A DNA stretch of 64,000 bases from the NCBI GenBank assembly GCA_965200965.1, contig OZ241744.1:2432001-2496000 (forward strand). Direction: 5' to 3'. Shown in pieces: positions 8,495-50,018 of this stretch. The stretch's first letter is position 1; each line of letters opens with the position of its first letter. This DNA comes from an uncultured Candidatus Binatia bacterium. GTDB taxonomy: Bacteria; Desulfobacterota; Binatia; Bin18. The notes below the pieces were generated by a model. That model did no database searches, was not told where the DNA came from, and saw only the letters and a list, made by a program, of their open reading frames with translations. The position numbers and the translations under genes are program-made.

Positions 8495-8636
8495 CTCCTG
8501 CTCTCCTCGGTGTACAGTCGCTAGGCTGAACTTTTGACAAACCTGATCGGCAATTTCAACGGCAACGTGACCGAAAACTTGATCCGGGGCCGCGCCAGTG
8601 CTAGGCTCGCCTCGCTTTTCCTGGGGGTACACGACT

Positions 8637-9296
8637 ATGAACGGTCCACACGATATGGGCGGCATGACGTGTTACGGCCCGGTCGAACGAGAGGACAACG
8701 AGCCGTTCTTCCACGCCGACTGGGAGCGGCGGGTGTTTGCCCTGACCATGCTGTCGCTCGGAGGCGTGGCCAATCTTGACGAGTTTCGGCACGCCATTGA
8801 GCGCATGGACCCGGTTCACTATCTGGCGTCGAGCTACTACGAGCACTGGCTGGCCGCCCTGGAAACGCTGGCTGTGGAAAAAGGGGTGCTCGCTCCGCAA
8901 GAGCTGGCATCAGGAAGGCTCCAGGGCCGAGCGGCTGAGACGCCCGGGCCGCTGCCGGCCGGGGTCGTGGCCGAAGTCGTCCGTCGGGGGGTCTCAGCCG
9001 GACGCGACAGTGGCCGCCTCACCCCACGCTTTGCCCCTGGCGACCGGGTGGTGGCCCGCAATATCAACCCCAGTGGTCATACCCGGCTGCCGCGCTATGC
9101 GCGTGGCAAGCCGGGCCGTATCGAGCGCGCCCACGGCACGTTTGTGTACCCGGACAGCAACGCCCACGGCAGCGGCGAACAGGCCCAGCCCTTGTATTCG
9201 GTCTGTTTCGAGGCCCAGACCCTGTGGGGTCCTGACACGCCGAGCCGCGACAGGGTGTACATTGACTTATGGGAAGATCATTTGGAATCCGCATGA
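8637..9296 (+). CDS. nthB: Nitrile hydratase beta subunit
   Basis: [42 protein letters not shown]. Confidence 0.95.
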
Positions 9297-9306
9297 GGAC
9301 AAGCCT

Positions 9307-9966
9307 ATGAGCAACGATCGCCATCAGGCTCCCCCCGACCCCAGGCTCGAAAAGCGCCACACGCCCGAGCAAACCCAGGCCCTGGAAGAACGGGTCAAGG
9401 CGCTCGAGTCGATGTTGACCCAAAAGGGTCTGGTCGCTACCGACTCGCTCGACAAGATCGTCGAGCTGTACGAAAACGACCTCGGGCCGCTCAAGGGGGC
9501 CAAGGTTGTTGCCCGAGCCTGGGTTGACCCGGCCTATAAACGGCGCTTGCTGAGCAAGGCCACTGCGGCCATTGAAGAGTTGGGCTTGGGGGGGTTGCAG
9601 GGCGAACATATGGTTGTGGCCGAGAACACGCCAACGACCCATAATGTTGTCGTGTGTACGCTGTGCTCGTGTTACCCCTGGCCGGTCCTGGGCCTTCCGC
9701 CGACCTGGTTCAAGAGCGCCCCGTACCGCTCGCGGGTGGTCATTGACCCGCGTAGTGTGCTCCGCGAATTCGGCCTGGATCTGGACGAATCGGTCGCCGT
9801 CCGGGTGTGGGACAGCAGCGCCGAGATTCGGTATATGGTGCTGCCCGAACGGCCGAGCGGGACAGAAAACCTGACCGAGGAAGAGTTGGCCCAGCTTGTT
9901 GACCGGGACTCCATGATTGGCGTGACCAAGGTCGGCTTTGAGCCCATCCACGAAGGTGAACGATGA
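9307..9966 (+). CDS. nthA: Cobalt-type nitrile hydratase alpha subunit
   Basis: Metal site [11 protein letters not shown] (Thr/Tyr pattern of the Co-type), [23 protein letters not shown]. Confidence 0.95.
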
Positions 9967-10003
9967 TGACCGATGGATATGAGAAGAACTCATCATTCAC
10001 CTT
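9953..10003 (+). repeat. Palindromic MITE/RPE-like element, subfamily B, overlapping the nthA stop
   Basis: Arms aaggtgaacgatga / tcatcattcacctt (13/14 complementary), 51 bp; same termini as 44224-44303. Confidence 0.85.
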
Positions 10004-10331
10004 TGCACGCATGACAAGAACCGCTCAGCCGGCAATTGCCGAAATGCCCGGCCAGGCTTCGCTGCCCCGTCGCAGCGGCGAGCTGGTATTCCACGAGCAG
10101 TGGGAACGCCGGGTGTTTGCCCTGGCCGTGTCGCTGTGTGAGCGGGGCTATTACTCGTGGAACGAGTTTCGTCAGCATTTGATCGCCGAGATCGCCGCCG
10201 CCGCCGACCAAGCCGCACCCTCTCAGCCGACAGGCCGGCCGCGGCCCTACTACGAAAGCTGGCTGCTCGCGTTGGAAAAACTCCTGGAGGAGAAAAACCT
10301 CTCCGGGCTGCCCGAACGCAATCAAGAATAA
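9963..10331 (+). CDS. Nitrile hydratase accessory/activator protein (P14K-like); true start may be ATG 10011
   Basis: [47 protein letters not shown], resembling the NHase beta N-terminus; follows nthA. Confidence 0.88.
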
Positions 10332-11523: not shown

Positions 11524-12780
11524 ATGTCTACAGAAGCCCCTCGGGCCCTCCGCCGGCTGGGTGCCATATTCGCCCTCCTTGCCTTTCCCCTTCCCTGCTG
11601 GGCCCAAGCCTCCCTGGAAAATCCTCAGCCCGGTTCTTTTCAGAGTGGCATCGGGCTGATTTCCGGCTGGGTGTGTAAGGCCGGTTCCATTGAGATCATC
11701 TTTGATGATGATTGGTCCAATCCGTTGCTGGCCGCCTATGGGACTCCCCGGGGCGATACCAGAGACGTATGTCAGAATGACGGCACCAACGGCTTTGGGC
11801 TGTTGATGAATTGGAATCTGTTGGGCAACGGCGAGCATAGCGTACAAGCCCTGGCTGACGGGGTGGAGTTCGCCGATGTGTCGATCACCGTGACTACCTT
11901 GGGGGGCGAGTTCTTACGCGACGCCAGCGGAGAGTTTGTCCTGGAGGATTTCCCCGAACTGGGGACGGATGTTGTGCTGCGATGGCAGGAGGCGCAGCAG
12001 AATTTTGTCATCAGCCAAGTCATTGACCTTGCCGCCCCGGTCACCGGCCCGACCACTCCAGCCGGGCAGACTGCCCGGGTCAGCGAGGTCCTTGACGGGG
12101 ATACGGTCCGCCTCAGCACTGGGCAGACCGTGCGCTATTTTGGGCTGAATACCCCGGAAGACGGTCAGCCATTCGCCGAGCAGGCAAAACGCTACAACGA
12201 ACAGCTGGTACTCGGCAAACAGGTCCGGGTGGTGGCCGCCAGACCCGAGCCCGACGGCTATCAACGCCGACTGGCCTATGTGTATGTCGGCGACAGTCTG
12301 GTTAACACCCGCCTCATCCGTGCCGGCTGGGCGCATGTCTTTATTCTTGACCCGCTTGACCAGGCCGAAGACTGGCTGCGCTTGCAGCGTGACGCCCAGG
12401 CCGCCGGCCGGGGCATATGGCAGGCCGTGGAGGGACCGCTGAAAATCACCCTGGTGCGCGCCGACGCCCCGGGCGACGACCGTGTCAACCCAAACGGCGA
12501 GTATGTCCGCATCTGCAATGTCAGCCCCCAGCCGGTTGAGTTGACCGGCTTTGCCGTACAGGATGACCAGAATCATCGCTATGTGTTTCCCAGCGGCCGC
12601 CTGCGGCCCGGGTATACCGCCCTGCTGTCCAGCGGCCCCGGTCGGAACAGCGTCCAAGACGGCCTGCATCGCTTTCACTGGGGCAGAGGGCCGGTGTGGA
12701 ATAACTCCGGGGATACCGCCTTTCTGTTTGACCCGCGCGGCAGGCTGATCGACTCCTGGACCATCCGGCCACGCGCTTGA
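11524..12780 (+). CDS. Secreted protein: signal peptide, unassigned N-terminal domain, thermonuclease (SNase) domain, lamin-tail domain
   Basis: Signal peptide ending CWAQA; SNase motifs VLDGDT, RYFGLNTPE, DGYQRRLAYVY; LTD motifs NGEYVRICN..VELTG and VWNNSGDTAFL. Confidence 0.85.
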   Translation: MSTEAPRALRRLGAIFALLAFPLPCWAQASLENPQPGSFQSGIGLISGWVCKAGSIEIIFDDDWSNPLLAAYGTPRGDTRDVCQNDGTNGFGLLMNWNLLGNGEHSVQALADGVEFADVSITVTTLGGEFLRDASGEFVLEDFPELGTDVVLRWQEAQQNFVISQVIDLAAPVTGPTTPAGQTARVSEVLDGDTVRLSTGQTVRYFGLNTPEDGQPFAEQAKRYNEQLVLGKQVRVVAARPEPDGYQRRLAYVYVGDSLVNTRLIRAGWAHVFILDPLDQAEDWLRLQRDAQAAGRGIWQAVEGPLKITLVRADAPGDDRVNPNGEYVRICNVSPQPVELTGFAVQDDQNHRYVFPSGRLRPGYTALLSSGPGRNSVQDGLHRFHWGRGPVWNNSGDTAFLFDPRGRLIDSWTIRPRA

Positions 12781-24234: not shown

Positions 24235-25233
24235 ATGCGGCTTCCACTGCACATCGCCACAGACATGATCAAATGGCAGTTCAAAAACAAGCTGCGGGGC
24301 AGACAGCGCTACCCGGTCGTCCTGATGCTGGAACCACTCTACGCCTGCAACCTGGCCTGCGTCGGCTGTAGCCCGGAACGCCACCTGGGTGATCTGAAAG
24401 ATCGGCTGAGCCTGGAACAGAGTCTGCAAGCGGTTGACGAGGCCGGCGCTCCGGTCATCTCGATCTGTGGTGGCGAGCCGACCATCTATCCTGAGTTGCC
24501 GGAACTGGTGACCGGCAGTATCAGACGCAAACGGCACGTCTACCTGTGTACCAACGGCCTGTTGCTGGACCGCTTCTACGCCAAGAGCGTCCCCCACAAA
24601 CGGCTGACCATCAATGTCCACCTTGACGGACTGCGCGAAACGCACGACTCCGTGTGCGCCCGGCAGGGCGTTTTTGACCAGGCCATCGCCATGATCAAGC
24701 GCGGCAAGCAACTCGGCTACTCGGTGTATACCAACACAACCATCTTCCGCAAAACCAGCATGGACGAGATTGAGCAGATGTGCGAGCTAGTGACCGGGCT
24801 GGGCGTTGACGGCCTGATGATCTCGCCCGGCTACCACTATGAGAAGGTCGCCCAAGACTATTTTCTGTACCGCGATGATATCCACCGCAAATTCGAGACT
24901 GTCCTGGAGTTGTCCAAACGCTATCCCATTTCCCTCACCCCGCTGTTCCTGGAGTTTGCGGCCGGCAAACGTGACTATCCGTGTACGCCGTGGGGCAACG
25001 TCACCCGCACGCCGTTTGGCTGGAAAGACCCGTGTTATCTGATTGGCAAACGCTACTTCCAGACCTGGGACGAGTTCTGGAACGGGGTGGACTGGGACTA
25101 TTGGGAGAAGCGCGAGGACGCCCTGTGCCAGAACTGCTTTATGCACTCCGGCTTTGAAGCCTCGGTGGTCCGCAAGCTGCCCGAAAGCCCCAGAGATATG
25201 CTGACTATTGCCAAGTGGATGGTGTCGGCATGA
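24235..25233 (+). CDS. hpnH: Adenosyl-hopene transferase (hopanoid radical SAM enzyme)
   Basis: YPVVLMLEPLYACNLACVGC, CGGEP, CTPWGNVT, CQNCFMHSGFE. Confidence 0.88.
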   Translation: MRLPLHIATDMIKWQFKNKLRGRQRYPVVLMLEPLYACNLACVGCSPERHLGDLKDRLSLEQSLQAVDEAGAPVISICGGEPTIYPELPELVTGSIRRKRHVYLCTNGLLLDRFYAKSVPHKRLTINVHLDGLRETHDSVCARQGVFDQAIAMIKRGKQLGYSVYTNTTIFRKTSMDEIEQMCELVTGLGVDGLMISPGYHYEKVAQDYFLYRDDIHRKFETVLELSKRYPISLTPLFLEFAAGKRDYPCTPWGNVTRTPFGWKDPCYLIGKRYFQTWDEFWNGVDWDYWEKREDALCQNCFMHSGFEASVVRKLPESPRDMLTIAKWMVSA

Positions 25234-26261
25234 AAGTCGCCCGACTGTATACGTCGTCTGATATCCGCTTTGAGGAGGAGCCTGTCCCCAGCCTTGGGCC
25301 GGGCCAGGCCCTGGTCAAAACCCGGGCCTGCGGCATCTGCTCGGGCGACGTGATGGCGTGGTATATTGAAAAAAAAGCCCCGGTGGTGTTTGGCCACGAG
25401 CCAGCCGGAGAAATTGTCGAGGTCGGGCCGGATGTGTCAGATTTTCAGCCCGGCGACCGGGTCTTTATTCATCACCACGCCCCCTGCTTTGGCTGTCGGG
25501 CCTGCCGGCGGGGCGACTTTGTGCAGTGCCCGACCTGGCGCGCCTCGCGTATTATTCCCGGCGGTATGGCCGAGTATTTCCTGGTTCCCAGAGAGAACCT
25601 GTCGGGTGACTGCCTGCGCCTTCCTGCCGACATGTCGTTTGCCGACGGCTCCCTGATTGAACCGACGGCGTGTGCGGTAAAAGCCCTGCGTCGCGCCCGG
25701 CTCCAGGCCGGAGACCGTGTGTGTGTGATCGGCCTTGGCATCATGGGTCAACTCAATGTCGCCCTGGCCCGGCACGCGGGCGCGGGCGCGATCATGGGCA
25801 CCGACTTTGTTGCCTACCGTCGGCACAAAGCCCTTGAACTTGGGGCGGACGCGGCGTTTGACCCTGCCGACGGCCCGGTCGAAGAGGCGATTCGAGACCA
25901 TACCAAAGGCGGGATGGCTGAACTCGTCATCGTTGGACCAGGGACAATCGAGGCCATGCAGCTCGGTATCCGCTGCGCGGCCAGGGGTGGGACCGTACTG
26001 CTCTTCACCACCAGCCGTCCCGATGCCAGGCTACCGATTGCGCCGCACGAGTTGTATTTCAACGAAATCAGTCTCATCCCCAGCTATTCGTGTGGACCGA
26101 ACGATACCCGCCAAGCCTTGGAGCATGTCCGCACCGGCGTTATTCCGTCTGATCGCCTCATCACCCACCGATTCCCCTTTGCCGCGATCCATAACGCCTA
26201 TCACAACGCGGCCGCGGCCCGGGATTCGCTGAAAACGATTATCGAGTTCCCACCTGGCTGA
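25230..26261 (+). CDS. Zn-dependent alcohol/polyol dehydrogenase (MDR family)
   Basis: CGICSGD, GHEPAG, C..C..C...C structural Zn site, GLGIMG. Confidence 0.9.
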   Translation: MKVARLYTSSDIRFEEEPVPSLGPGQALVKTRACGICSGDVMAWYIEKKAPVVFGHEPAGEIVEVGPDVSDFQPGDRVFIHHHAPCFGCRACRRGDFVQCPTWRASRIIPGGMAEYFLVPRENLSGDCLRLPADMSFADGSLIEPTACAVKALRRARLQAGDRVCVIGLGIMGQLNVALARHAGAGAIMGTDFVAYRRHKALELGADAAFDPADGPVEEAIRDHTKGGMAELVIVGPGTIEAMQLGIRCAARGGTVLLFTTSRPDARLPIAPHELYFNEISLIPSYSCGPNDTRQALEHVRTGVIPSDRLITHRFPFAAIHNAYHNAAAARDSLKTIIEFPPG

Positions 26262-26277
26262 AAAGAGTGGGGGAGGC

Positions 26278-29202
26278 ATGGAAAATCCACTGCTGAAGGT
26301 CCATCAACTCGGCCAGAGCATTTGGTACGACAATATCCGGCGCGGCCTGATTACCTCGGGCGAACTGCGCGCCCTCGTCAAACGCGACGGCGTGTGCGGA
26401 ATCACCTCCAACCCGGCGATCTTCGAGAAGGCCCTGTCCAACACCGCGGATTACGACCAAGCCATGCGGGCTCTGGTTGAGCAGGGGGTTGGAACGAACA
26501 AAGACATATATGAACGGCTGGCCATCCAGGATATTCAGATGGCCGCCGACCTCTTAGCCCCAATCTACCACGACACGAACCGGCGGGACGGCTATGTGAG
26601 CTTTGAGGTCTCGCCCCATCTGGCCCATGATACGCGCGGGACAGTCAAAGAGGCGCGGCGGCTGCGGTCGGCGGTTGACCGTGAAAATGTCATGATCAAA
26701 GTCCCGGCCACCCAGGCCGGTATCCCGGCCATCACCCAACTTGTCAGCGAAGGCACAAACATCAACGTTACCCTGCTGTTCGCAGTAGATGTCTATGAGG
26801 CTGCCGCCACCGCCTATATGGCCGGTTTGGAACGGCTGTGCGCCAGCGGTGGGGAGTTGGCCAAGGTCAGCAGTGTGGCCAGCTTTTTTGTCAGTCGGCT
26901 CGACTCCCTGATTGACGAGCGGCTGAACACGGCCCTTGACGTGGCTGACCCGGCCCAGCGGGACCACATCAGGGGGCTGCTCGGCACCGCGGCCATTGCC
27001 AACGCAAAGGCCGCGTATGCCGCCTACCAGAACATTATCGCCAGCCAGCGCTGGCAAAGCCTGGCCGCCCGTGGAGCCAAGCCCCAACGCCTGCTGTGGG
27101 CCAGCACGAGCACCAAGAATCCGGCCTATCCGAAGACCAGGTATATTGATGCGCTGATCGGGCCGGATACGGTCAGCACCCTGCCGGATGAGACGCTGCG
27201 CGCGTTTCGCCAGCTCGGTCGGCCTCAGCAGCCCCGTCTGACCGAAAACTGGCCTGAAGGGCTTGAGCAAGCCCAGGCCAGGCTTCGCAGCCTGGGTCAG
27301 CTTGGCATTTCTCTGCGAGAGGCGACCGATCATCTGCTGACCGACGGGGTCAAAAAGTTTGGCGATTCGTTCGACGCCCTGCTGAGCGCCATAGAACACA
27401 AACGCCAAGCCCTGCTCGGACCGGACTTGGCCCGGCAAGACTCCAATCTCGGAGAAGCCAGCCCCGCGGTTGAGGCGGCGCTCAAAGAGTGGCGCGCCTC
27501 GGGCAAAGTCCGCCGTCTGTGGCAGGGCGATACCTCCCTGTGGTCGCGGACAGACGAGGACAGGTGGCTCGGCTGGTTGTCGGTCGTTGAGCGGCAGCGG
27601 GAACACCTTGCCGAGCTGCGCCAGATTGCCGACGAGCTCCGCGCCAGTGGCATCCGCCACCTTGTGCTGCTGGGGATGGGTGGCTCAAGTCTGTGCCCCG
27701 ATGTCCTCCGGGCCAGCTTTGGCAAGAAAGCGAACGATAAGAGCCACTATTCAGGAAGAGGGCAGCGTTCGCTCTCTCAGGGCGGCTTTCCTGAACTGCA
27801 TGTGCTTGACTCGACCGTCCCCGCCCAAGTTCAGGCCACGGTCAAACGCATAGACCCGGCCCGGACCGTGTGCATTGTCTCCTCAAAATCGGGCGAGACG
27901 ATTGAACCGCAGGTCCTCAAGGACTACTTCGCGGACGCGATACAAAGCGCCATCGGTCCAGAACCAGTCGGGAGCCGTTTCATTGCCATTACCGACCCTG
28001 AGACCGCCCTCCACCGGCTGGCCCGGGCAGAGGGTTTTCGCCACATTGTCCACGGCAGCCCCGACATAGGCGGGCGGTTTTCCGCCCTGTCGCCGTTTGG
28101 TCTGCTGCCAGCCGCCCTGATGGGAGTCGATGTCGAGCGTTTTCTTGACAGCGCAATGCGGATGGTCCAATCCTGCGCCGCCAGTGTTCCGCCCGATGCC
28201 AACCCCGGCGTCAGCCTGGGGATCATCCTGGCCACGTTCGGCCAGCAGGGGCGGGACAAGCTCACGTTCATCACCTCACCGCCAATCGGGAGCCTGGAGA
28301 CCTGGCTCGAACAACTCATTGCCGAGTCAACCGGCAAAAACGGGCGGGGCCTGATTCCGGTTGCTGGCGAACCGCTCGGACCGCCCGAGGTGTACGGCCA
28401 CGACCGGCTGTTTGTCTACATCCGCCTCAACACAGCGCCCTCAACCGAACAGGACGCCGCGGTCGCTGCCCTGGAACGCGCCGGCCAGCCGTCGGTCCGG
28501 ATTACGCTTGAGCAGACAATTGATCTGGGCCAGGAGTTCTTCCGCTGGGAAATCGCCACCGCGGTGGCCGGTTCGCTCTTGGGCGTCAATCCCTTCAACC
28601 AACCCGATGTCGAAGCCAGCAAGCGGGCAACGCGGACCTTGATGGATCGCTACCAGCAAGAAGGTGGCACTCGGCCAGGCGCGTCTGCCATGCTGGAGGA
28701 GGCCGGGCTTCGGCTGTGTACCGACGCGCGAAACGCCGACTCCCTGCTGTCCGCGGCTCCGGCCTGGACCCTGGAAGCAGCCCTGGCCGCCCATCTCAGC
28801 CAACTGCGGGCCGGCGACTATCTGGCCATCAACGCCTATCTCGACATGAGCCCGGCCAACGGCCGGATACTGCAACAGCTCCGCCAGGCCATTCGTGACA
28901 AAAAACGGGTTGCCACTACCCTCGGCTATGGACCGCGCTTCTTACACTCAACAGGTCAGTCGCACAAAGGCGGGCCTGACACCGGGGTCTTTCTCCAGCT
29001 CACGGCCGACGACAGCCCGGATATCGCCATCCCCGGCCGACCCTACAGTTTTGGCGTCCTGAAAAATGCCCAGGCCCAGGGTGACGCCGAGGTCCTGGCC
29101 GAACGCGGCAGACGGTGTGTCCGCATCCATCTTGGTGCAGATATCCACGCCGGCCTGGCCCATCTCCACACCGTGGTCCAGCGTGCTCTGGGGGAAAAGT
29201 GA
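26278..29202 (+). CDS. Bifunctional transaldolase / phosphoglucose isomerase
   Basis: GQSIWYD, TSNPAIF, MIKVPAT, NINVTLLF; PGI half GMGGSSL, SSKSG, GGRFS, EQLIAESTGK, NPFNQPDVE. Confidence 0.94.
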   Translation: MENPLLKVHQLGQSIWYDNIRRGLITSGELRALVKRDGVCGITSNPAIFEKALSNTADYDQAMRALVEQGVGTNKDIYERLAIQDIQMAADLLAPIYHDTNRRDGYVSFEVSPHLAHDTRGTVKEARRLRSAVDRENVMIKVPATQAGIPAITQLVSEGTNINVTLLFAVDVYEAAATAYMAGLERLCASGGELAKVSSVASFFVSRLDSLIDERLNTALDVADPAQRDHIRGLLGTAAIANAKAAYAAYQNIIASQRWQSLAARGAKPQRLLWASTSTKNPAYPKTRYIDALIGPDTVSTLPDETLRAFRQLGRPQQPRLTENWPEGLEQAQARLRSLGQLGISLREATDHLLTDGVKKFGDSFDALLSAIEHKRQALLGPDLARQDSNLGEASPAVEAALKEWRASGKVRRLWQGDTSLWSRTDEDRWLGWLSVVERQREHLAELRQIADELRASGIRHLVLLGMGGSSLCPDVLRASFGKKANDKSHYSGRGQRSLSQGGFPELHVLDSTVPAQVQATVKRIDPARTVCIVSSKSGETIEPQVLKDYFADAIQSAIGPEPVGSRFIAITDPETALHRLARAEGFRHIVHGSPDIGGRFSALSPFGLLPAALMGVDVERFLDSAMRMVQSCAASVPPDANPGVSLGIILATFGQQGRDKLTFITSPPIGSLETWLEQLIAESTGKNGRGLIPVAGEPLGPPEVYGHDRLFVYIRLNTAPSTEQDAAVAALERAGQPSVRITLEQTIDLGQEFFRWEIATAVAGSLLGVNPFNQPDVEASKRATRTLMDRYQQEGGTRPGASAMLEEAGLRLCTDARNADSLLSAAPAWTLEAALAAHLSQLRAGDYLAINAYLDMSPANGRILQQLRQAIRDKKRVATTLGYGPRFLHSTGQSHKGGPDTGVFLQLTADDSPDIAIPGRPYSFGVLKNAQAQGDAEVLAERGRRCVRIHLGADIHAGLAHLHTVVQRALGEK
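27725..27777 (+). repeat. Palindromic element (subfamily B, degenerate) inserted in frame in tal-pgi
   Basis: Arms agaaagcgaacg / cgttcgctctct (11/12 complementary); tcaggaaga...cgttcgc shared with 44280-44301; encodes KANDKSHYSGRGQRSLS. Confidence 0.7.
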
Positions 29203-29255
29203 ACAATGCCCTCTCCCTGACCGAGCTGGGTATCAGCGTTCATTTTGAGACAGGT

Positions 29256-29939
29256 ATGGCCCAAGACATTACCGAACACGCGCTCAGCCTTATTGACAAC
29301 GGCACCATCGTCGGGCTGGGCTCGGGGCGGGCGGCGCGGGATTTTGTGCGTGCCCTAGGCACCCGCGTCCAGGCCGGCCTCCAGGTCCAAGGCGTGCCAA
29401 CCTCCCGAACAACCGCCGGCCTGGCCCGGAGCCAGGGGATTCCTCTCTTTGGACCGGACGAGGTTGACCGGATTGATATTGCGGTTGACGGCGCAGACGA
29501 GGTCGATCCATCGCTCCAGCTGATCAAGGGCTATGGCGGGGCGCTGGTCCGGGAAAAAATTGTGGCCGCCTCGGCCAAACGCTTTGTCGTTCTTGTCGGC
29601 CAAGAGAAACTCGTACCGGTCCTTGGCTCGCGCGGCAAACTCCCCCTCGAAGTCCTCCCCTTTGGTGCCGCCCTGTGTTTGCGGCTGCTGGATGAACTCG
29701 GCTGGCAGCCACTGCTGCGCCAGGAAACCGGCACGCCATGTACCACCGACAACGGCAACTATCTGGTGGACTGCCACATCCCCCTCCTGCCTTCTCCCGC
29801 GGTCTGGGAGCGACGCTTGTCAGCCATGCCCGGCATCGTGGGCACCGGCCTCTTCATTGACATGGCCCACACGGTCCTGATCCAGACTGGCGACACCGTA
29901 CAGGTCCGCCAGCGAACCCCCACCATACTGCCCCCATGA
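29256..29939 (+). CDS. rpiA: Ribose-5-phosphate isomerase A
   Basis: VGLGSG, DGADEVD, IKGYGGALVREKIVA, TDNGN. Confidence 0.94.
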   Translation: MAQDITEHALSLIDNGTIVGLGSGRAARDFVRALGTRVQAGLQVQGVPTSRTTAGLARSQGIPLFGPDEVDRIDIAVDGADEVDPSLQLIKGYGGALVREKIVAASAKRFVVLVGQEKLVPVLGSRGKLPLEVLPFGAALCLRLLDELGWQPLLRQETGTPCTTDNGNYLVDCHIPLLPSPAVWERRLSAMPGIVGTGLFIDMAHTVLIQTGDTVQVRQRTPTILPP

Positions 29940-30000: not shown

Positions 30001-31095
30001 ATGCCCAACATACACCCCTCCACTATGGCTCCCCTGACGACCTGGGCGCGCCTCTTATGGGAAAACCGCGGTGTGGCCCCGCCCTACTGGGGAAAACTGG
30101 CCGGCATTCTGCTGCTCAGCAGCCTGGCCAGCCCCCTGCGTCTCGCCGAGCGGCTCCGCTACGGTCGGCACGTCACCCACACGCCAATCGCCCCCCAGCC
30201 GCTCTTCATCCTGGGATTTGCCCGCAGCGGCACGACGCATTTGCACAACCTGTTGCAGCATGATCCCCAGTACGGCACGGTCTCAACCTTTCAGGCAGCC
30301 GTGCCGACCTTCTTCCTGATCGGACGCGGCTGGCTCAAACGCCAGATGGCAAAATCCCTCCCAGCCACCAGACCCGGGGACAATGTGCGTGTGTCCCTTG
30401 ACGCGCCACTCGAAGAAGAAGTCGCACTCAGCAATACCTGTGCGCTCTCCCCTGTCCATCACCTGTCGTTTCCCCAGCAGACCCGCGCCTATCTGGACAA
30501 ATATCTCACCATGCAGGGATGCACGAACAAAGAGCTGGCCCGCTGGGAGCAGGTCTATCTGGATATCCTGCGCAAGGCGACCCTTGCCCACAACGGACGC
30601 CCCCTCGTCCTGAAGAGCCCGAACAACACCAGCCGGATTCCCCATCTCCTGCGCCTCTTCCCCGAGGCAAAATTCATCCACATCGTCCGCAACCCCTACC
30701 GCGTGTATGGCTCAATGCTGCACCTGTATCAGACCATCCTGCCTCTCTTTCAACTCCAGGACATCGCCGGCGACGACATAGTTGACTACGTCCTGCACGG
30801 ATACACGCTCACTATGCGGGCCTATCTGCACGACCGGGCCTTGATTCCCAAGAGGAATCTCGCCGAAGTCCGTTTTGAAGACCTCGAACGGCAGCCACTC
30901 GCCGAACTCGAACGCCTCTACACCGAGTTGGCCCTGCCGGGCTGGCAGCAGGCCCAAGGCCCGATACGCGAGTATCTCCACACCCTGTCCGGCTATCAGA
31001 AAAACCGCCTCTCGCTGGACCATTCCGCCATCAAGCGCATCGAGCAGGAGTGGCAATTCGTTTTGGATGTCTGGCCCTACCCACTCCCCAACTAA
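30001..31095 (+). CDS. Sulfotransferase family protein
   Basis: 5'-PSB loop PLFILGFARSGTTHLHNLL, VLKSP, FIHIVRNPY, VRFEDL. Confidence 0.9.
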   Translation: MPNIHPSTMAPLTTWARLLWENRGVAPPYWGKLAGILLLSSLASPLRLAERLRYGRHVTHTPIAPQPLFILGFARSGTTHLHNLLQHDPQYGTVSTFQAAVPTFFLIGRGWLKRQMAKSLPATRPGDNVRVSLDAPLEEEVALSNTCALSPVHHLSFPQQTRAYLDKYLTMQGCTNKELARWEQVYLDILRKATLAHNGRPLVLKSPNNTSRIPHLLRLFPEAKFIHIVRNPYRVYGSMLHLYQTILPLFQLQDIAGDDIVDYVLHGYTLTMRAYLHDRALIPKRNLAEVRFEDLERQPLAELERLYTELALPGWQQAQGPIREYLHTLSGYQKNRLSLDHSAIKRIEQEWQFVLDVWPYPLPN

Positions 31096-31119
31096 TCATT
31101 CAGCCGAGGAGTCGAGCCC

Positions 31120-33102
31120 ATGCTACGCTTTGCCGAAGAGATTCTTCTTCTGTTGTTCAACGAAGGATCCGGGGCAATCCACCCCTCCTTTCCCCCGCGC
31201 TCATTAGATATCGTTCTCGCCGGTGCCGTGCTGATGGACCTGGCTCTGGAAGGCCGCATTGATACCGATCTCGAACACCTGACCGTGCTTGATGCAAGGC
31301 CACTCGCAGACGATATCCTCGATCCCACCCTGGCCGATATCGTCAGCGATCAGCCCCACGCGCGCGACATCGGTTTCTGGCTCACCCGGACAGCCAAACG
31401 CGGCGGCGAAATCCGTGACCACGGCGTGGCACGCTTGATCGCACACGGCATTCTCGAAGGCGAGGACGACAGCCCGCTCTCCCTGTCGTCCGTGGTGGTC
31501 CGCTCCCGACGCTATCCGCTCAGCGACGGAGAAAGAGTCGAGGAAGTGCGGCTGCGGCTCATGCGCGTGCTGTTCACCGAAGAGATTCCCGACCAGCGCG
31601 ATATCGTGCTCATCTGCCTAGCGGATGCCTGCGGCATTTTCGAGGCCATCCTGTCCAAGTCGGAACGGGCCGAGGTGCAGGAGCGCATCGAGATAGTGCG
31701 GAAACTGGACCTGATCGGGCAGGCACTGACGCAGGCGGTGCAGCACCTCGAGTCGGCCCCCCGCCCAGCCCCACACCGGCGCAAGGACATACCGCAGGCC
31801 CCCGGGCTGCCGCTCATCGGCAATGCCTTCAGCCTGCGATACAACCTCCCCAGCTTTCTCGCACAGCAGTACCACGCCCTAGGGCCGGTTTTCCGCACCC
31901 GCGCCTTCAACTATCGCTTCATCGCCCTCGTCGGCCCGGAGGCCAATCGTTTCCTGGCACGGGACACGCGCCATTTTCGGAGTTATGAAACATGGGTTCC
32001 TTTCGTCGCCAGTGTGGGGGGGGCCTCACAGGTGATGGCTGGGATGGACGGTCCCGAACACATCCGTATGCGCCGGGCACATGCGGATCACTATTCGCGC
32101 AAGCTGCTGGAAAACCGCATGAACAAGGCGGTCGGCATCATGCAAGATCAGATTGCGGAATGGCCGCTGGACACCCCGGTTCCCGTTCAATACGCTTTCC
32201 AGCGTATCGTCACCACGCAATTGTGCCGCTTGATCATGAACACGGATCCGAGGGAATACCTGGACGATTTCATGTACCTCTTCCGGACGCTCCTTATGGT
32301 ACACTTGACTCAGCAACTGCCCCGGGGGGTGATGTTCCTGCCTCGTTTTCGGCGGGCCTCCAGGCGGATGGAGGAGTTGGCCCGGAACATTCTGGCCGAT
32401 CACGCACCGGAGCATCGCCATACCCGCCCCCCTGATTTCATTGACGACATCCTCGAACTCAATCGGACCGACCCCCATTTCATGCCCGAGACCAATCTGC
32501 TGCTGACCATCTTGGAATCGTTCATGGTCGGGCTCGACACCGTGTCAACGATCTGCTCCTTCATGACCTACCAGTTATTGAAGCACCCGGAGCTGCTCGC
32601 GCGCGTGACCGCGGAAGCAGACGCCCTGTTTGAGCAGGGGATCACCGCCCCGAACGATGTACGTCACCTGGATGTCCTCCACCGCGTAGCGATGGAGACG
32701 CTGCGCCTGTATCCCCTCGCACCGGCGTTGCAGCGGATCGTCGCCAACTCGTTCGAGTTTGAGGACTACCACATTGCTGCCGGCGAGCGCGTCCTGATCG
32801 GATTTACAGTGCCCCACCTGATGGCGAAATACTTTCCCGACCCGCATCGCTTCGATATTGACCGCTACACCCCAGAGCGGGCGGAGCACAAACAAGTCGG
32901 GGCCTATGCGCCCTTCGGTGCCGGGACGCATCGGTGTCTGGGCAATAGTCTGGCCGAGGTGTTGATCGCGCTCAATATCGCCACCCTCGTCCATACCACC
33001 GAACTCACCCTGGCCCCCCCCGATTACACCTTGAAGATCAAACAGATGCCCACCCCCCGCCCCACCTCCTCATTCAAGGTCCGACGGGCACCCCGCAGGT
33101 AG
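31120..33102 (+). CDS. GPP34/GOLPH3(Vps74)-like domain fused to cytochrome P450
   Basis: N-terminal MLRFAEEILLLL..LAGAVLMDLALEGRI (GPP34-like, ~205 aa); P450 part with PGLPLIG, VGLDTV, ETLR and PFGAGTHRCLG, all in one ORF. Confidence 0.85.
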   Translation: MLRFAEEILLLLFNEGSGAIHPSFPPRSLDIVLAGAVLMDLALEGRIDTDLEHLTVLDARPLADDILDPTLADIVSDQPHARDIGFWLTRTAKRGGEIRDHGVARLIAHGILEGEDDSPLSLSSVVVRSRRYPLSDGERVEEVRLRLMRVLFTEEIPDQRDIVLICLADACGIFEAILSKSERAEVQERIEIVRKLDLIGQALTQAVQHLESAPRPAPHRRKDIPQAPGLPLIGNAFSLRYNLPSFLAQQYHALGPVFRTRAFNYRFIALVGPEANRFLARDTRHFRSYETWVPFVASVGGASQVMAGMDGPEHIRMRRAHADHYSRKLLENRMNKAVGIMQDQIAEWPLDTPVPVQYAFQRIVTTQLCRLIMNTDPREYLDDFMYLFRTLLMVHLTQQLPRGVMFLPRFRRASRRMEELARNILADHAPEHRHTRPPDFIDDILELNRTDPHFMPETNLLLTILESFMVGLDTVSTICSFMTYQLLKHPELLARVTAEADALFEQGITAPNDVRHLDVLHRVAMETLRLYPLAPALQRIVANSFEFEDYHIAAGERVLIGFTVPHLMAKYFPDPHRFDIDRYTPERAEHKQVGAYAPFGAGTHRCLGNSLAEVLIALNIATLVHTTELTLAPPDYTLKIKQMPTPRPTSSFKVRRAPRR

Positions 33103-33139
33103 CGTCCAGGGCGATGCTCTGCAGCTCCAAGGATTCGCG

Positions 33140-34323
33140 ATGATTTTTCGTCAAGCAGCCTTCCTCCACAGCATATGGGCAATACTGGCCCTCATCGCTC
33201 TTTTCCCGCTCCCCCTCCAGGCAAGTGCTGCTGCCGGAAATTGTCGCGGCCCTCGCAAGTCTGAACCGCATTTCGGGAACAGCCGGGATTCGTTCTGATC
33301 TGATGCGTTTGCCCGCGTGTCTGTTCCCGACGATAGCCGGTGTCGGGCTGCAACGGGTCCTGGAGCAGGTCGAGGTTGAGATAGACAACAGTGACATCCA
33401 AGCGCTGATCGCGTCTTTGCAGATCGTCCAGGCGGCGTTTGAGTTCGCCCCGGCCTATGATCTCGATGCCGATCTACGGCTGGTGACGACGCAAACATCG
33501 CAAGCCATTCTGGATGCTGAGCCCAGGCTGCTGCGTCTTCGCTCCCGCGCCCCGCTCACGACCGCCCGGAACTTGCTTGATCACGCGCTGCAAAACGCCG
33601 GCACGGCCCTTGATTCTCTTTTGACCGAGACAGACGACCAGTCTGATGATCTCGTCGTGATTCTTCCTCAGGGCGTCTCGGATACGCGCTTAATACGGGA
33701 TACCGTGAAATCAGTCCGCCAGTCTTTGACGAGGAGCGTCAGCCTGCCAACCGAACTCCTGGCCGAGCCAGAACGGCTCAATCTCAGCTTGCTGTTCTCC
33801 GGGAGGTTCGGAACACTGCGGCCGTTTGTTCCGGTTTTCGATAGCCATGGATGCAGGACACTGAGCAGCCCGGCAACATTAGCTGGCACCCTCACACACA
33901 GACCACACTTCCCTTTTCCGTGGCGGCAAGACTCTTGGAGCGTTCCTTCCTTTGGGCCGCTTTCCTGATCCAACCTTCGGCGGGACAATTCCAGACCTGA
34001 CCCAGCCAGATATCACCAATCAGTTTCTCAAATGGGAAACCTGCTATGCGGACTGTTATGCCTTCGCTGGCACGGCCGGACAGACCCTCTTTCTCCGAGT
34101 CCAAAGTGCAACGTTCGATACGGTCCTGACCCTGAGTGGACCTGATGGCCGTGTTGTGGAGGACAACGACGACTGTTTGAGCGATTCTCCCAATTCTTGT
34201 CTCCCTGACGATACCCCAGGGGGAGGCAGGCTTATTCTCCCCAACTCAGGCTCCTACACGGTTGAAGTCAGCTCCTGCTATGCAGAAAAAGGTGGTGACT
34301 ACACACTGACCATTGGCAGGTGA
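33140..34323 (+). pseudogene. Fragmented secreted protein with a C-terminal PPC-like domain
   Basis: Signal peptide MIFRQAAFLHSIWAILALIALFPLPLQASA at 33140, middle piece 33225-~33860, and C-terminal piece from 33952 (FDTVLTLSGPDG..EDNDD..SGSYTVEVSS) lie in three different frames. Confidence 0.65.
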
Positions 34324-34347
34324 TAAAGCCGATTTGGGACAAGTGCA

Positions 34348-34974
34348 GTGTGGTGGCGTCTTTCCGTGAAGACAAGCGGGCGTGGACTTGCCTTGATCGG
34401 CATGGTCGGGGGATGCGTTGGCTTGATAGCAGCCCTTCGCACCAACAGACCAGAAGAAGTTTCTCTTCCGCTCAACTCCGGGATGGGTCTCCAAGGCTTT
34501 CACACTGCTGTGTACGATGGGGGTCGCTTGCAAATGCGGGTTTCTGCCGACTCGCTGACCCTCTCCAAAGCACGGCTATGGGGACCCTTTCGTTCAGGTT
34601 TTGCTCATGCCTTGGTTGTTCGTAATTTTACAGTAGAGATTTTTCCCGACTCTGCTGCCGCTCGCTCCGCCCGCTCACAACCGCTCGCCCTCAAGCAAAT
34701 CTGGACATCGCTCACACCCTCTGTCACTCAGCTATTGCAACCATTCTCGCTTCAAAGCGGTGGTGGCGTCATTGTGTCAGCGCGGCTGAGTCCTCTTCAG
34801 GTTATTGAGCAGAGACCGAACCGGACAACGGTGCTGCTCAAATCCGCTTCGTGCAGGACGACGCGAGGCTTGACGGGTCTGGTCTGTACAGATGGCTTCG
34901 TTCGGGTGGGCGGGCAGGAGAGGCCGTTCCAGGAATGGCGGTCGGGATCAGAGACAGGCAGAGAAGGGACATAA
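34348..34974 (+). CDS. Hypothetical protein with an N-terminal membrane anchor
   Basis: 208-aa ORF filling the gap; hydrophobic stretch near the N-terminus. Confidence 0.55.
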   Translation: MWWRLSVKTSGRGLALIGMVGGCVGLIAALRTNRPEEVSLPLNSGMGLQGFHTAVYDGGRLQMRVSADSLTLSKARLWGPFRSGFAHALVVRNFTVEIFPDSAAARSARSQPLALKQIWTSLTPSVTQLLQPFSLQSGGGVIVSARLSPLQVIEQRPNRTTVLLKSASCRTTRGLTGLVCTDGFVRVGGQERPFQEWRSGSETGREGT

Positions 34975-40429: not shown

Positions 40430-40501
40430 TAGGCGCGGGCGGTATCGAACCGCCGACCTCTTCCGCGTCAAGGAAGCGCTCTCCCACTGAGCTACGCGCC
40501 T
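40430..40501 (-). tRNA. tRNA-Val(GAC)
   Basis: Cloverleaf aggcgcg/cgcgcct, anticodon arm cttcc-ttGACgc-ggaag, T arm GGTTCGATACC; CCA not encoded. Confidence 0.95.
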
Positions 40502-44306: not shown

Positions 44307-44380
44307 CTGGGGAGGCAGGACTCGAACCTGCGAATACCGGGGCCAAAACCCGGTGCCTTACCTGGCTTGGCTACTCCCCA
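44307..44380 (-). tRNA. tRNA-Gln(TTG)
   Basis: tggggag/ctcccca acceptor stem, ccggg-ttTTGgc-cccgg anticodon arm, GGTTCGAGTCC; typical ispE-tRNA-Gln-prs position. Confidence 0.95.
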
Positions 44381-48898: not shown

Positions 48899-49304
48899 AT
48901 GGGCCGCGATCTGGATGATATCCGTATTCTCGACCTGACACACTTCCATAACGGTCCCTACTCAACCCTGGTTCTGAGCTTCCTGGACGCAGAAGTGATC
49001 AAACTCGAACCGCCGGGCAAAGGCGAGCGGGCGCGGATGATCTTTCCTATACGGGGCGGTCAAAGAGGTGGAGGAGTTTCTGACCGATCCGCATATCCGT
49101 GAGCGTGGCCTGTTGCAAGACCTTCAGCATCCACAGGCCGGCCGGATGGCTGTTCTCGGCTCTCCCTGGCGGCTGAACAATGAGCACCCGTCGCTTGATT
49201 CCCCGAGTCCGGGTCCCTGCCAGCGCAATGCGCTGATCTACGGCCGGCTGCCGGGTCTGGCCGAAGACGAGATGCAGACCCTTCGGGAGCAGGGCGTGAG
49301 CTGA
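48899..49304 (+). pseudogene. CaiB/BaiF CoA-transferase with most of its interior deleted
   Basis: N-terminus LDDIRILDLT..GPY..AEVIKLEPP joined out of frame to the C-terminus DPHIRERG..HPQAG..GSPWRL..LREQGV; only ~400 bp. Confidence 0.85.
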
Positions 49305-49344
49305 GCAGCTTGCCTCGCCCGGCCCGGTTTCCTGTCCTGAACCC

Positions 49345-50018
49345 ATGACAGCCACGAACGCACTTCCCGTCGGCCCTCAGTCGCCCGCAGCGGTTCAACT
49401 CCTGCGCCGGGTCTTTCGTCCGATTCCGTTCCTGCACGACTGTGCCCGGTGTTACGGCACCTGTTTTACGATGCGTTTAACTCCAGAATCCGCCGTTTGT
49501 GCTGTTCAGCGCGCCCGAGGCGGTTAAGGAGATATTCACCGGCGACCCCGAACAACTCCCGGCCGGCAAAACGCGTGAGATCATGCGGCCCCTGGTCGGT
49601 CAGCATTCCCTGTATCCCTCAGCTTGACTATCTGGACGCCACGATCAGAGAAACCCAGCGCCTCCGCCCCATTGTGCCCCTCGTTGGACGGGTGTTGCCC
49701 GAACCGCTCCGCCTCGGCGGCCAGAACCGGCCGGCCGGCGTGGTGGTCGCCCCGTGCATCTATCTCACCCACCATCACCCGGATATCTGGCCCGAACCAC
49801 ACACCTTTGACCCGGACCGCTTCCTGGCCAAGCGGGTCAGTCCCTACGAATTCTTCCCGTTCGGCGGCGGGATTCGTCGCTGCATTGGTGCCGCCTTTGC
49901 GCTGTACGAGATGAAAATTGTCCTAGCTCAGGTGCTGACCGGGGGCGGGCCAGCGTGTGCGTCTGCGCCGACGCGGGATTACCTTTGCGCCGTTTCAGGG
50001 GAGGCCGGTCATTTGTGA
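49345..50018 (+). pseudogene. Cytochrome P450 pseudogene (frameshifts plus internal deletion)
   Basis: N-terminus LPVGP..RPIPFL..YG..F, then a jump to YLDATIRETQRLRP and FFPFGGGIRRCIG. Confidence 0.85.

Follow-up and report, generated by a model that had tools for sequence, protein, structure and literature searches.

In a 64,000-nucleotide stretch of the genome of an uncultured Candidatus Binatia bacterium (assembly GCA_965200965.1, contig OZ241744.1, positions 2,432,001 to 2,496,000; hereafter the window), two genes follow one another on the plus strand with 24 bp between them. The first encodes a sulfotransferase of the type that uses 3′-phosphoadenosine-5′-phosphosulfate (PAPS), and the second encodes a protein in which a GPP34 domain, as in GOLPH3 and Vps74, is fused to a cytochrome P450 (Table 1). 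An earlier note on this DNA, made from its letters alone, had proposed this order of genes, a 660-residue frame joining GPP34 to a complete P450 and the identity of residues 1-210 as GPP34, and all of this was borne out. The GPP34 match scores 124 bits against a cut-off of 29.1 and covers profile positions 2-200 of 201, and a profile of the domain matches GOLPH3 (E 2.9e-15) and Vps74 (E 1.7e-13). In the P450 domain, E526, R529 and C606 are invariant in 121/121 aligned homologues. The AlphaFold model of the fusion has a mean predicted local distance difference test (pLDDT) score of 85.5 and shows two folded domains joined by a low-confidence linker at residues 214-218. The sulfotransferase has a loop, G72-T79, which we take to be the PAPS phosphosulfate-binding loop, and G72, R75, S76, G77, T78 and T79 are kept in at least 93% of 159 aligned homologues. 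Neither a sigma-70-like promoter nor an intergenic terminator matched at the locus, and the two genes are probably co-transcribed.

Table 1. Features of the sulfotransferase and fusion genes, in window coordinates.
Feature	Position	Strand	Basis
Sulfotransferase, PAPS-type (P0002)	30001..31095	+	364 aa; Pfam PF13469 Sulfotransfer_3, E 2e-34; homologue of the enzyme at the BT_0416 position in Bacteroides
Sulfotransferase loop G72-T79 (GFARSGTT)	30214..30237	+	alignment of homologues
GAGGAG, ribosome-binding-site-like, within the 24-bp gap	31106..31111	+	sequence
GPP34-cytochrome P450 fusion (P0001), GPP34_L protein	31120..33102	+	660 aa; Pfam, AlphaFold model
GPP34 (GOLPH3/Vps74-like) domain, residues 5-209	31132..31746	+	Pfam, E 1e-35
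Ala34 at the GOLPH3 Arg90 position (PI4P pocket)	31219..31221	+	alignment; Arg in 0/176 fusions and 0/37 short GPP34
Arg99 at the GOLPH3 Arg174 position, sole pocket residue kept	31414..31416	+	Arg in 144/176 fusions
Segment 112-133 aligned to the GOLPH3 hydrophobic beta-hairpin, then basic RxRRY; candidate membrane-docking surface	31453..31518	+	alignment
Pro/Arg-rich linker, residues 210-225	31747..31794	+	between Pfam domains; pLDDT <50 at 214-218
Complete P450 domain, residues 226-638	31795..33033	+	Pfam p450 (PF00067), 176 bits, E 1e-51
I-helix acid-alcohol pair D473-T474	32536..32541	+	sequence
ExxR motif E526-R529	32695..32706	+	sequence
Heme-ligand Cys606	32935..32937	+	sequence

The fusion is genuine. 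Single contigs from three studies span, gap-free there, both the sulfotransferase/fusion junction and the linker between GPP34 and P450 (X7, 30306-33907; X8, 30685-34500; X11, 30306-32807, in window coordinates), and X7 and X8, from runs labelled sponge metagenome, are pieces of 3.6-3.8 kb that differ from the window sequence by 10-15 letters. Contig X2 is identical and may be the source. Both Pfam domains are present in 120/120 homologues among the matches listed, at 52-95% identity, which together with the junction-spanning contigs rules out an assembly artefact or read-through as the origin of the fusion. The "C-rich block" described in the earlier note held mainly for one of the two genes: the GC skew of the sulfotransferase gene, -0.22, is the lowest 1-kb value genome-wide (fraction 0.0003), but that of the fusion gene is only -0.11 (genome standard deviation 0.064). 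Since GC content is an ordinary 0.61 in both genes, as in their neighbours, and the excess of C falls at codon positions 1 and 3, the C-richness is not a mark of foreign DNA, and we ruled out a foreign C-rich island. We found no triple fusion that takes in the sulfotransferase. A 1024-aa frame at locus L044 merely overlaps the sulfotransferase gene in another frame, the 1036-aa protein P0253 has lost the heme Cys and continues into an acyltransferase gene, and a search of proteins of 1156-3300 aa yielded none, which is weak evidence. P0253 belongs to the P0092 cluster (with P0248 and P0251), from one lineage in which an Acyl_transf_3 gene follows the fusion, and is a frameshifted read-through of both genes.

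The earlier note had suggested that the architecture may be undescribed; it was in fact published in 2025 as GPP34_L. In the part of that paper available to us, GPP34 plus P450 makes up 656 of 663 long forms, found in sponge symbionts only, and GPP34_L is proposed to be a secreted effector that binds phosphatidylinositol 4-phosphate (PI4P) (Ferreira et al., Microbiome 2025;13:4, PMC11706023). Our protein shares with GPP34_L the two-domain architecture, the sponge habitat and the presence of a separate short GPP34 gene in the same genome. The published proposal of an effector differs from what we describe below: neither the link to a sulfotransferase nor the context of sterol clusters nor the loss of the PI4P pocket was found in the available part, and its main text has zero mentions of sulfotransferase, sterol, steroid or signal peptide, with a flanking-gene figure (S11, in the supplement) that may show the neighbour. 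A literature search, with subscription journals outside its coverage, found no paper on a unit of GPP34-P450 and sulfotransferase. The fusion is thus known, and its pairing with a sulfotransferase and a metabolic reading of it were not found in print. The short GPP34 gene of this genome (217 aa, 40% identical to the fusion's domain; minus strand, G000:C1:2987834-2988870, L001:1459-2502) comes immediately after a gene for a STAS anti-sigma antagonist and one for a CoA-transferase-like protein, and a short GPP34 was found in 6/6 genomes of the genus, whether or not they have a fusion.

The homology of the GPP34 domain to GOLPH3 and Vps74 extends over the helical core and the hairpin region. GOLPH3 binds PI4P through W81, R90, R171 and R174, the double substitutions W81A/R90A and R171A/R174A each abolish binding, and a role for its hydrophobic beta-hairpin comes from the same source, as far as its available part goes (PMC2806290). 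The fusion has P25, A34, G96 and R99 at the four pocket positions. Equivalents of W81, R90 and R171 (W, R and R/K, respectively) occur in 0/176 aligned fusions and 0/37 short forms. The register at W81 is uncertain by 1-2 residues; residues 19-33 of our protein hold no Trp, and a Trp lies somewhere in this segment in 27/176 fusions. GOLPH3-like binding of PI4P, which the comparison with GOLPH3 had implied, is contradicted by the lack of three of the four pocket residues throughout the 176 fusions. The fusion further differs from GOLPH3 and Vps74 in having no counterpart of GOLPH3 residues 1-59 and in being joined to an enzyme. In the segment aligned to the hairpin, the short forms carry FLWVF, and the hydrophobic stretch is longer in the fusions and less hydrophobic in this one. 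We infer from the alignment that the GPP34 domain docks on the membrane independently of PI4P, using the hairpin and the RxRRY patch.

The closest solved structures of the P450 domain are those of CYP51, the sterol 14-alpha-demethylases, both by sequence (E 1e-34) and by fold (Z 35.1 and 35.0, root-mean-square deviation 3.3-3.5, 431-435 aligned residues, with the model over residues 221-660). All matches in both fold searches were to the P450 domain, and the searches are hence silent on the fold of GPP34. Members of one P450 family share about 40% identity. Identity to CYP51 is just 18-26% (22-26% to the Methylococcus enzyme), non-sterol P450s come within 1-4 Z units of the CYP51 matches, and VGLDT in the I-helix of the fusion aligns with AGHHT of CYP51; we therefore ruled out membership in CYP51 and regard the domain as a distinct P450 family. 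It has the features of a competent P450, namely C606, E526-R529, D473-T474 and a full fold. The acid-alcohol pair (DT or ET) is present in 13/13 fusions linked to a sulfotransferase and replaced in 26/46 other locus-derived fusions, and position 466 is Glu in 10/13 linked fusions vs 1/46 of the others, hinting at a distinct active site in the linked group.

The sulfotransferase is 33% identical (113/340 identities, no gaps, E 2e-69) to a gene of Bacteroides finegoldii that follows cysQ, an SLC13 permease gene, cysC, cysD and cysN, with identical order in Parabacteroides distasonis. BT_0416, whose gene order is as in this B. finegoldii PAPS cluster, sulfates cholesterol, according to the part of the source available to us (PMC9417993). 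We located this gene order in plasmid-collection records; the orthology of the B. finegoldii gene to BT_0416 rests on it, and our comparison was made with the former gene. The resemblance does not extend to the neighbours, since our sulfotransferase is paired with a P450 fusion and the Bacteroides gene with PAPS genes. In a search of 301 Bacteroidia genomes we obtained 35 homologues, and the BT_0416 gene order was seen in 0/36 loci inspected, a tally that includes one unpublished genome (G481); none of our claims depends on that genome. The ESM Atlas returned generic sulfotransferase clusters only. Judged by its sequences the family is broad, and 33% identity does not fix the substrate. One Bacteroidia locus (L185:4940-7399) has a P450 gene and a homologous sulfotransferase gene tail to tail, an independent pairing of the two enzymes; the gene ahead of them is presumably fatty-acyl-AMP-ligase-like.

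We surveyed the linkage in 301 Binatia-class genomes, of which 60 match GPP34 and 37 match the sulfotransferase at E 1e-25. In all 13 genomes with a full-length sulfotransferase orthologue (at least 49% identity), the start of a GPP34-P450 gene lies 9-691 bp further downstream, always on the same strand; of these fusion genes, 12 are intact and one is split. One further genome holds only a decayed copy of both genes, and the two decayed copies that we saw (G043 C3 and G231 C3) are cases in which both were lost together. The 23 genomes with only 29-46% homologues never match GPP34 (0/23), and at 18 loci of such homologues neither GPP34 nor a close P450 was present. The linked pairs span two families and several gene contexts, and in a tree 11 of the 13 loci form one clade with the other two on deep separate branches. 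Identities across the 13 pairs are correlated (Spearman 0.88), but this reflects shared descent and we do not use it as evidence. The link is conserved but lineage-limited: it is non-random among close orthologues of the sulfotransferase, and it holds for a minority of fusions, not for the whole family. Outside Binatia there is only a hint of linkage, from four pairs of proteins whose longest contigs are of exactly equal length (5007, 4627, 6265692 and 7244034; also 110342); a further match of this kind (3440) is probably due to chance. We also observed two different sulfotransferases in tandem ahead of a fusion (L065:686-2951), a distant sulfotransferase just downstream of one (L111:3539-4783), and stand-alone P450s at L077-L081 and L095 that score as high as fused members with the fusion-P450 profile and have no detected GPP34, a probable loss of the domain.

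The paralogous fusions lie among other genes. Within 4 kb of fusions at 61 loci, the recurring genes encode a Rieske-KshA oxygenase (18), a flavin oxidoreductase (13), an EcKL-type kinase (12), a major facilitator superfamily (MFS) transporter (11), a sterol-sensing MMPL protein (10), sterol methyltransferases (10), thiolase (8) and an SdmB-like protein (5). SdmA-like Rieske genes stand beside the SdmB-like genes, and none of the Sdm matches reaches its curated cut-off. Oxidosqualene-cyclase-like genes were found in 6/48 GPP34-bearing genomes searched, and each of the six has a paralogous fusion at a distance of 94 bp to 10.1 kb. They score 713-738 bits, under the cut-off of 851, and hopene cyclases score 201-231; 3 of 3 genes inspected have the motif DCTAE, which we take to be typical of oxidosqualene cyclases. 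Sponge-symbiont steroid gene clusters and sterol methyltransferases have been published, Binatia included, and the parts of these papers available to us do not mention GPP34 or sulfotransferase (PMC9531527, PMC10070321). In our data, such clusters enclose or adjoin paralogous GPP34-P450 genes in 6/6 cases, whereas the linked pair is outside any such cluster.

Several of these paralogues deserve description. At L050, L053-L059, L061-L074 and L223, a clade of fusions (23/46 of the unlinked ones) has an I-helix rebuilt so that the acid-alcohol pair is gone, and is accompanied by Rieske, methyltransferase, SdmA/SdmB-like and cyclase genes; it may perform non-standard P450 chemistry on sterols. Oxidosqualene-cyclase-like domains occur in frames of 1114-1273 aa (L223:6470-11869, L224:5785-9591, L225:1-7910), apparently fused to an upstream flavoprotein that is presumably squalene-epoxidase-like, and in genome G081 a GPP34-P450 gene comes within 100 bp after an oxidosqualene-cyclase-like frame. 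In another clade (L043, L052, L082, L083, L085, L087, L089-L091, L103, L130, L131), genes for an ecdysteroid-kinase-like (EcKL/APH) protein and an MFS transporter come after the fusion, suggesting that phosphorylation there replaces sulfation.

The genome is a single 3.62-Mb contig and is 99.3% complete. It has the PAPS synthesis genes cysD and cysNC, squalene-hopene cyclase (shc) and hpnH, and no oxidosqualene cyclase (sterol cyclase) was found in it; it makes hopanoids, not sterols. The earlier note had named hopanoids as a possible substrate, and hpnH does lie 4.8 kb upstream of the pair. On the same strand, hpnH, a zinc dehydrogenase gene, a fused transaldolase/glucose-6-phosphate isomerase gene and rpiA fill window positions 24235-29939, the last ending 61 bp before the sulfotransferase gene. 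This hpnH-rpiA context recurs only in genomes of the same genus, and we rejected a hopanoid link via hpnH. At E 1e-5, no triterpene cyclase was found in 19/20 genomes of family f15, including G073 and G129, which carry the pair. The substrate, therefore, need not be made by the cell, and a hopanoid is unlikely in general.

With these results, we propose that the sulfotransferase and GPP34-P450 work as one unit in the cytoplasm, docked on the membrane, to oxidise and sulfate sterols that the cell imports, a reading to which we give about an even chance. GPP34 would tether the P450 to the bacterial membrane by way of the hairpin and the RxRRY patch, not by a PI4P pocket, and a separate ferredoxin would supply the electrons with which the P450 oxidises a sterol acquired from the sponge or from other symbionts in it. 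PAPS would be the sulfate donor for the sulfotransferase, which would act either on the new hydroxyl or, in parallel, at C-3. The resulting oxidised sterol sulfate would have a role in solubilisation, detoxification or chemical defence. Of the hydroxylate-then-sulfate route for lipids, sterols or hopanoids that the earlier note had put forward, the idea of oxidation and sulfation stands, with a sterol the most likely substrate given the relatives of both enzymes and the neighbours of the family. We presume that this sulfotransferase is akin to Stf3. Cyp128 followed by Stf3 is a precedent for the scheme, in which, according to the available part of the source, an adjacent P450 and sulfotransferase hydroxylate and then sulfate a membrane lipid (PMC7404182). 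The adjacency is matched here in 13/13 genomes, but Cyp128-Stf3 has no GPP34 domain and its substrate is menaquinone.

A number of observations weigh against a sterol-sulfating unit. The likeness to CYP51 is shallow and is nearly equalled by non-sterol P450s, and a member of a Gloeothece polyketide cluster, at 35% identity, is as close to the sulfotransferase as the Bacteroides gene is. The fusions within sterol clusters belong to paralogous clades at ~35-45% identity, mostly with the rebuilt I-helix, and not to the clade linked to the sulfotransferase, around which the genes are of housekeeping or generic types. For the Rieske, methyltransferase and kinase partners of the paralogues, this genome has no close homologues, and no redox partner adjoins the pair (genome-wide, there are seven Fer2 matches and no Fer4_13 match). 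A close sulfotransferase partner is present for 12/42 Binatia fusions examined and absent for 30/42, and among 20 metagenome fusions from the Joint Genome Institute (JGI) it is present for one and absent for 15, with too little upstream DNA in four; these counts include near-duplicate records and leave three long GPP34 frames outside. Because 11 of the 13 linked loci belong to one clade, the linked cases are not independent.

These points bear on the alternatives as well. The unit might oxidise and sulfate a non-sterol lipophile, such as menaquinone or another isoprenoid, a hopanoid, or a sponge terpenoid or xenobiotic to be detoxified. Cyp128-Stf3, the nearest pathway precedent, acts on menaquinone, the sulfotransferase family occurs in many contexts, and this genome has shc as well as hpnH near the pair, all of which favor such a substrate; the position of paralogues in sterol clusters argues the other way, and for a hopanoid in particular so do the pair carriers without a triterpene cyclase and the genus-limited hpnH-rpiA context. 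We consider a non-sterol lipophile somewhat unlikely. The two genes could also merely travel together and be co-expressed while acting on different substrates, the sulfotransferase being one of several interchangeable neighbours of a cassette. Most fusions lack a sulfotransferase and have a kinase, acyltransferase, Rieske or methyltransferase partner instead, most linked cases descend from one event, and in G231 decay has reached the sulfotransferase and GPP34 but spared the P450 part. We think this improbable, since close orthologues of the sulfotransferase were never found apart from the fusion, the two genes always keep the same order and strand, and the pairing is seen again on two deep branches, with fusions 46% identical.

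P450 and PAPS enzymes need cytoplasmic cofactors, which is hard to reconcile with the published proposal that GPP34_L is secreted, binds host PI4P through GPP34 and blocks phagosome maturation. The genuine homology to GOLPH3/Vps74 and the retained R174 equivalent speak for such an effector, as do the restriction to sponge symbionts and the expression in sponges reported in the available part of PMC11706023. The missing W81, R90 and R171 equivalents in fusions and short forms alike speak against it, and the GPP34 domain is net acidic (23 K+R vs 38 D+E) and opens with helix 1, neither a leader nor a Tat motif having been found. Furthermore, the YscJ/FliF (type III/flagellar), VipB (type VI) and VirB4 (type IV) families of injection systems were not found in this nearly complete genome, in searches whose controls matched. 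The missing pocket residues and the lack of an injection system weigh against the effector idea, which we regard as very improbable for this protein.

Returning to the sterol-oxidising and -sulfating unit, we speculate, with considerable doubt, that GPP34-P450s at large are membrane-docked sterol oxidases of sponge symbionts with swappable tailoring partners rather than effectors, and that the branch linked to the sulfotransferase represents a route by which bacteria make the polyhydroxylated sterol sulfates of sponges. If this were true, bacterial GPP34 would be a PI4P-independent membrane or sterol-presenting module, possibly near the ancestral role of GOLPH3. GPP34_L proteins number in the hundreds across sponge-symbiont phyla, and the sole published explanation for them is that they help symbionts evade phagocytosis through PI4P; what we found points to lipid chemistry instead, in a compact two-gene system that could be assayed in E. 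coli. The biosynthesis of bioactive sponge steroids is treated as hypothetical in the available part of an isolation paper (PMC6723502). Should oxidised sterol sulfates prove to be made, symbiont enzymes would be assigned to this class of compounds and bacterial GPP34 would gain its first function.

Elsewhere in the window and genome we made some minor observations. Window positions 33128-34032 hold the remains of a 683-aa secreted-type protein that has lost its 5′ half and has a broken frame; it is intact at the same-genus locus L003 (8047-10098), and a repeat related to its N-terminal one occurs at 11545-12018 on a protein with SNase and lamin-tail domains. A P450 pseudogene lies in several frameshifted pieces at about 49200-50015, with ExxR and heme Cys retained in the C-terminal piece, and the minimum of the cumulative GC skew of the genome falls near 49-50 kb of the window. 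Nitrile hydratase beta and accessory genes are found at 8598-10328, and tRNA-Val and tRNA-Gln at 40430-40501 and 44307-44380. Four near-identical short open reading frames of 137-184 aa with a common N-terminus stand in tandem at L194:4408-6405 (G000 ~2176400-2178400).

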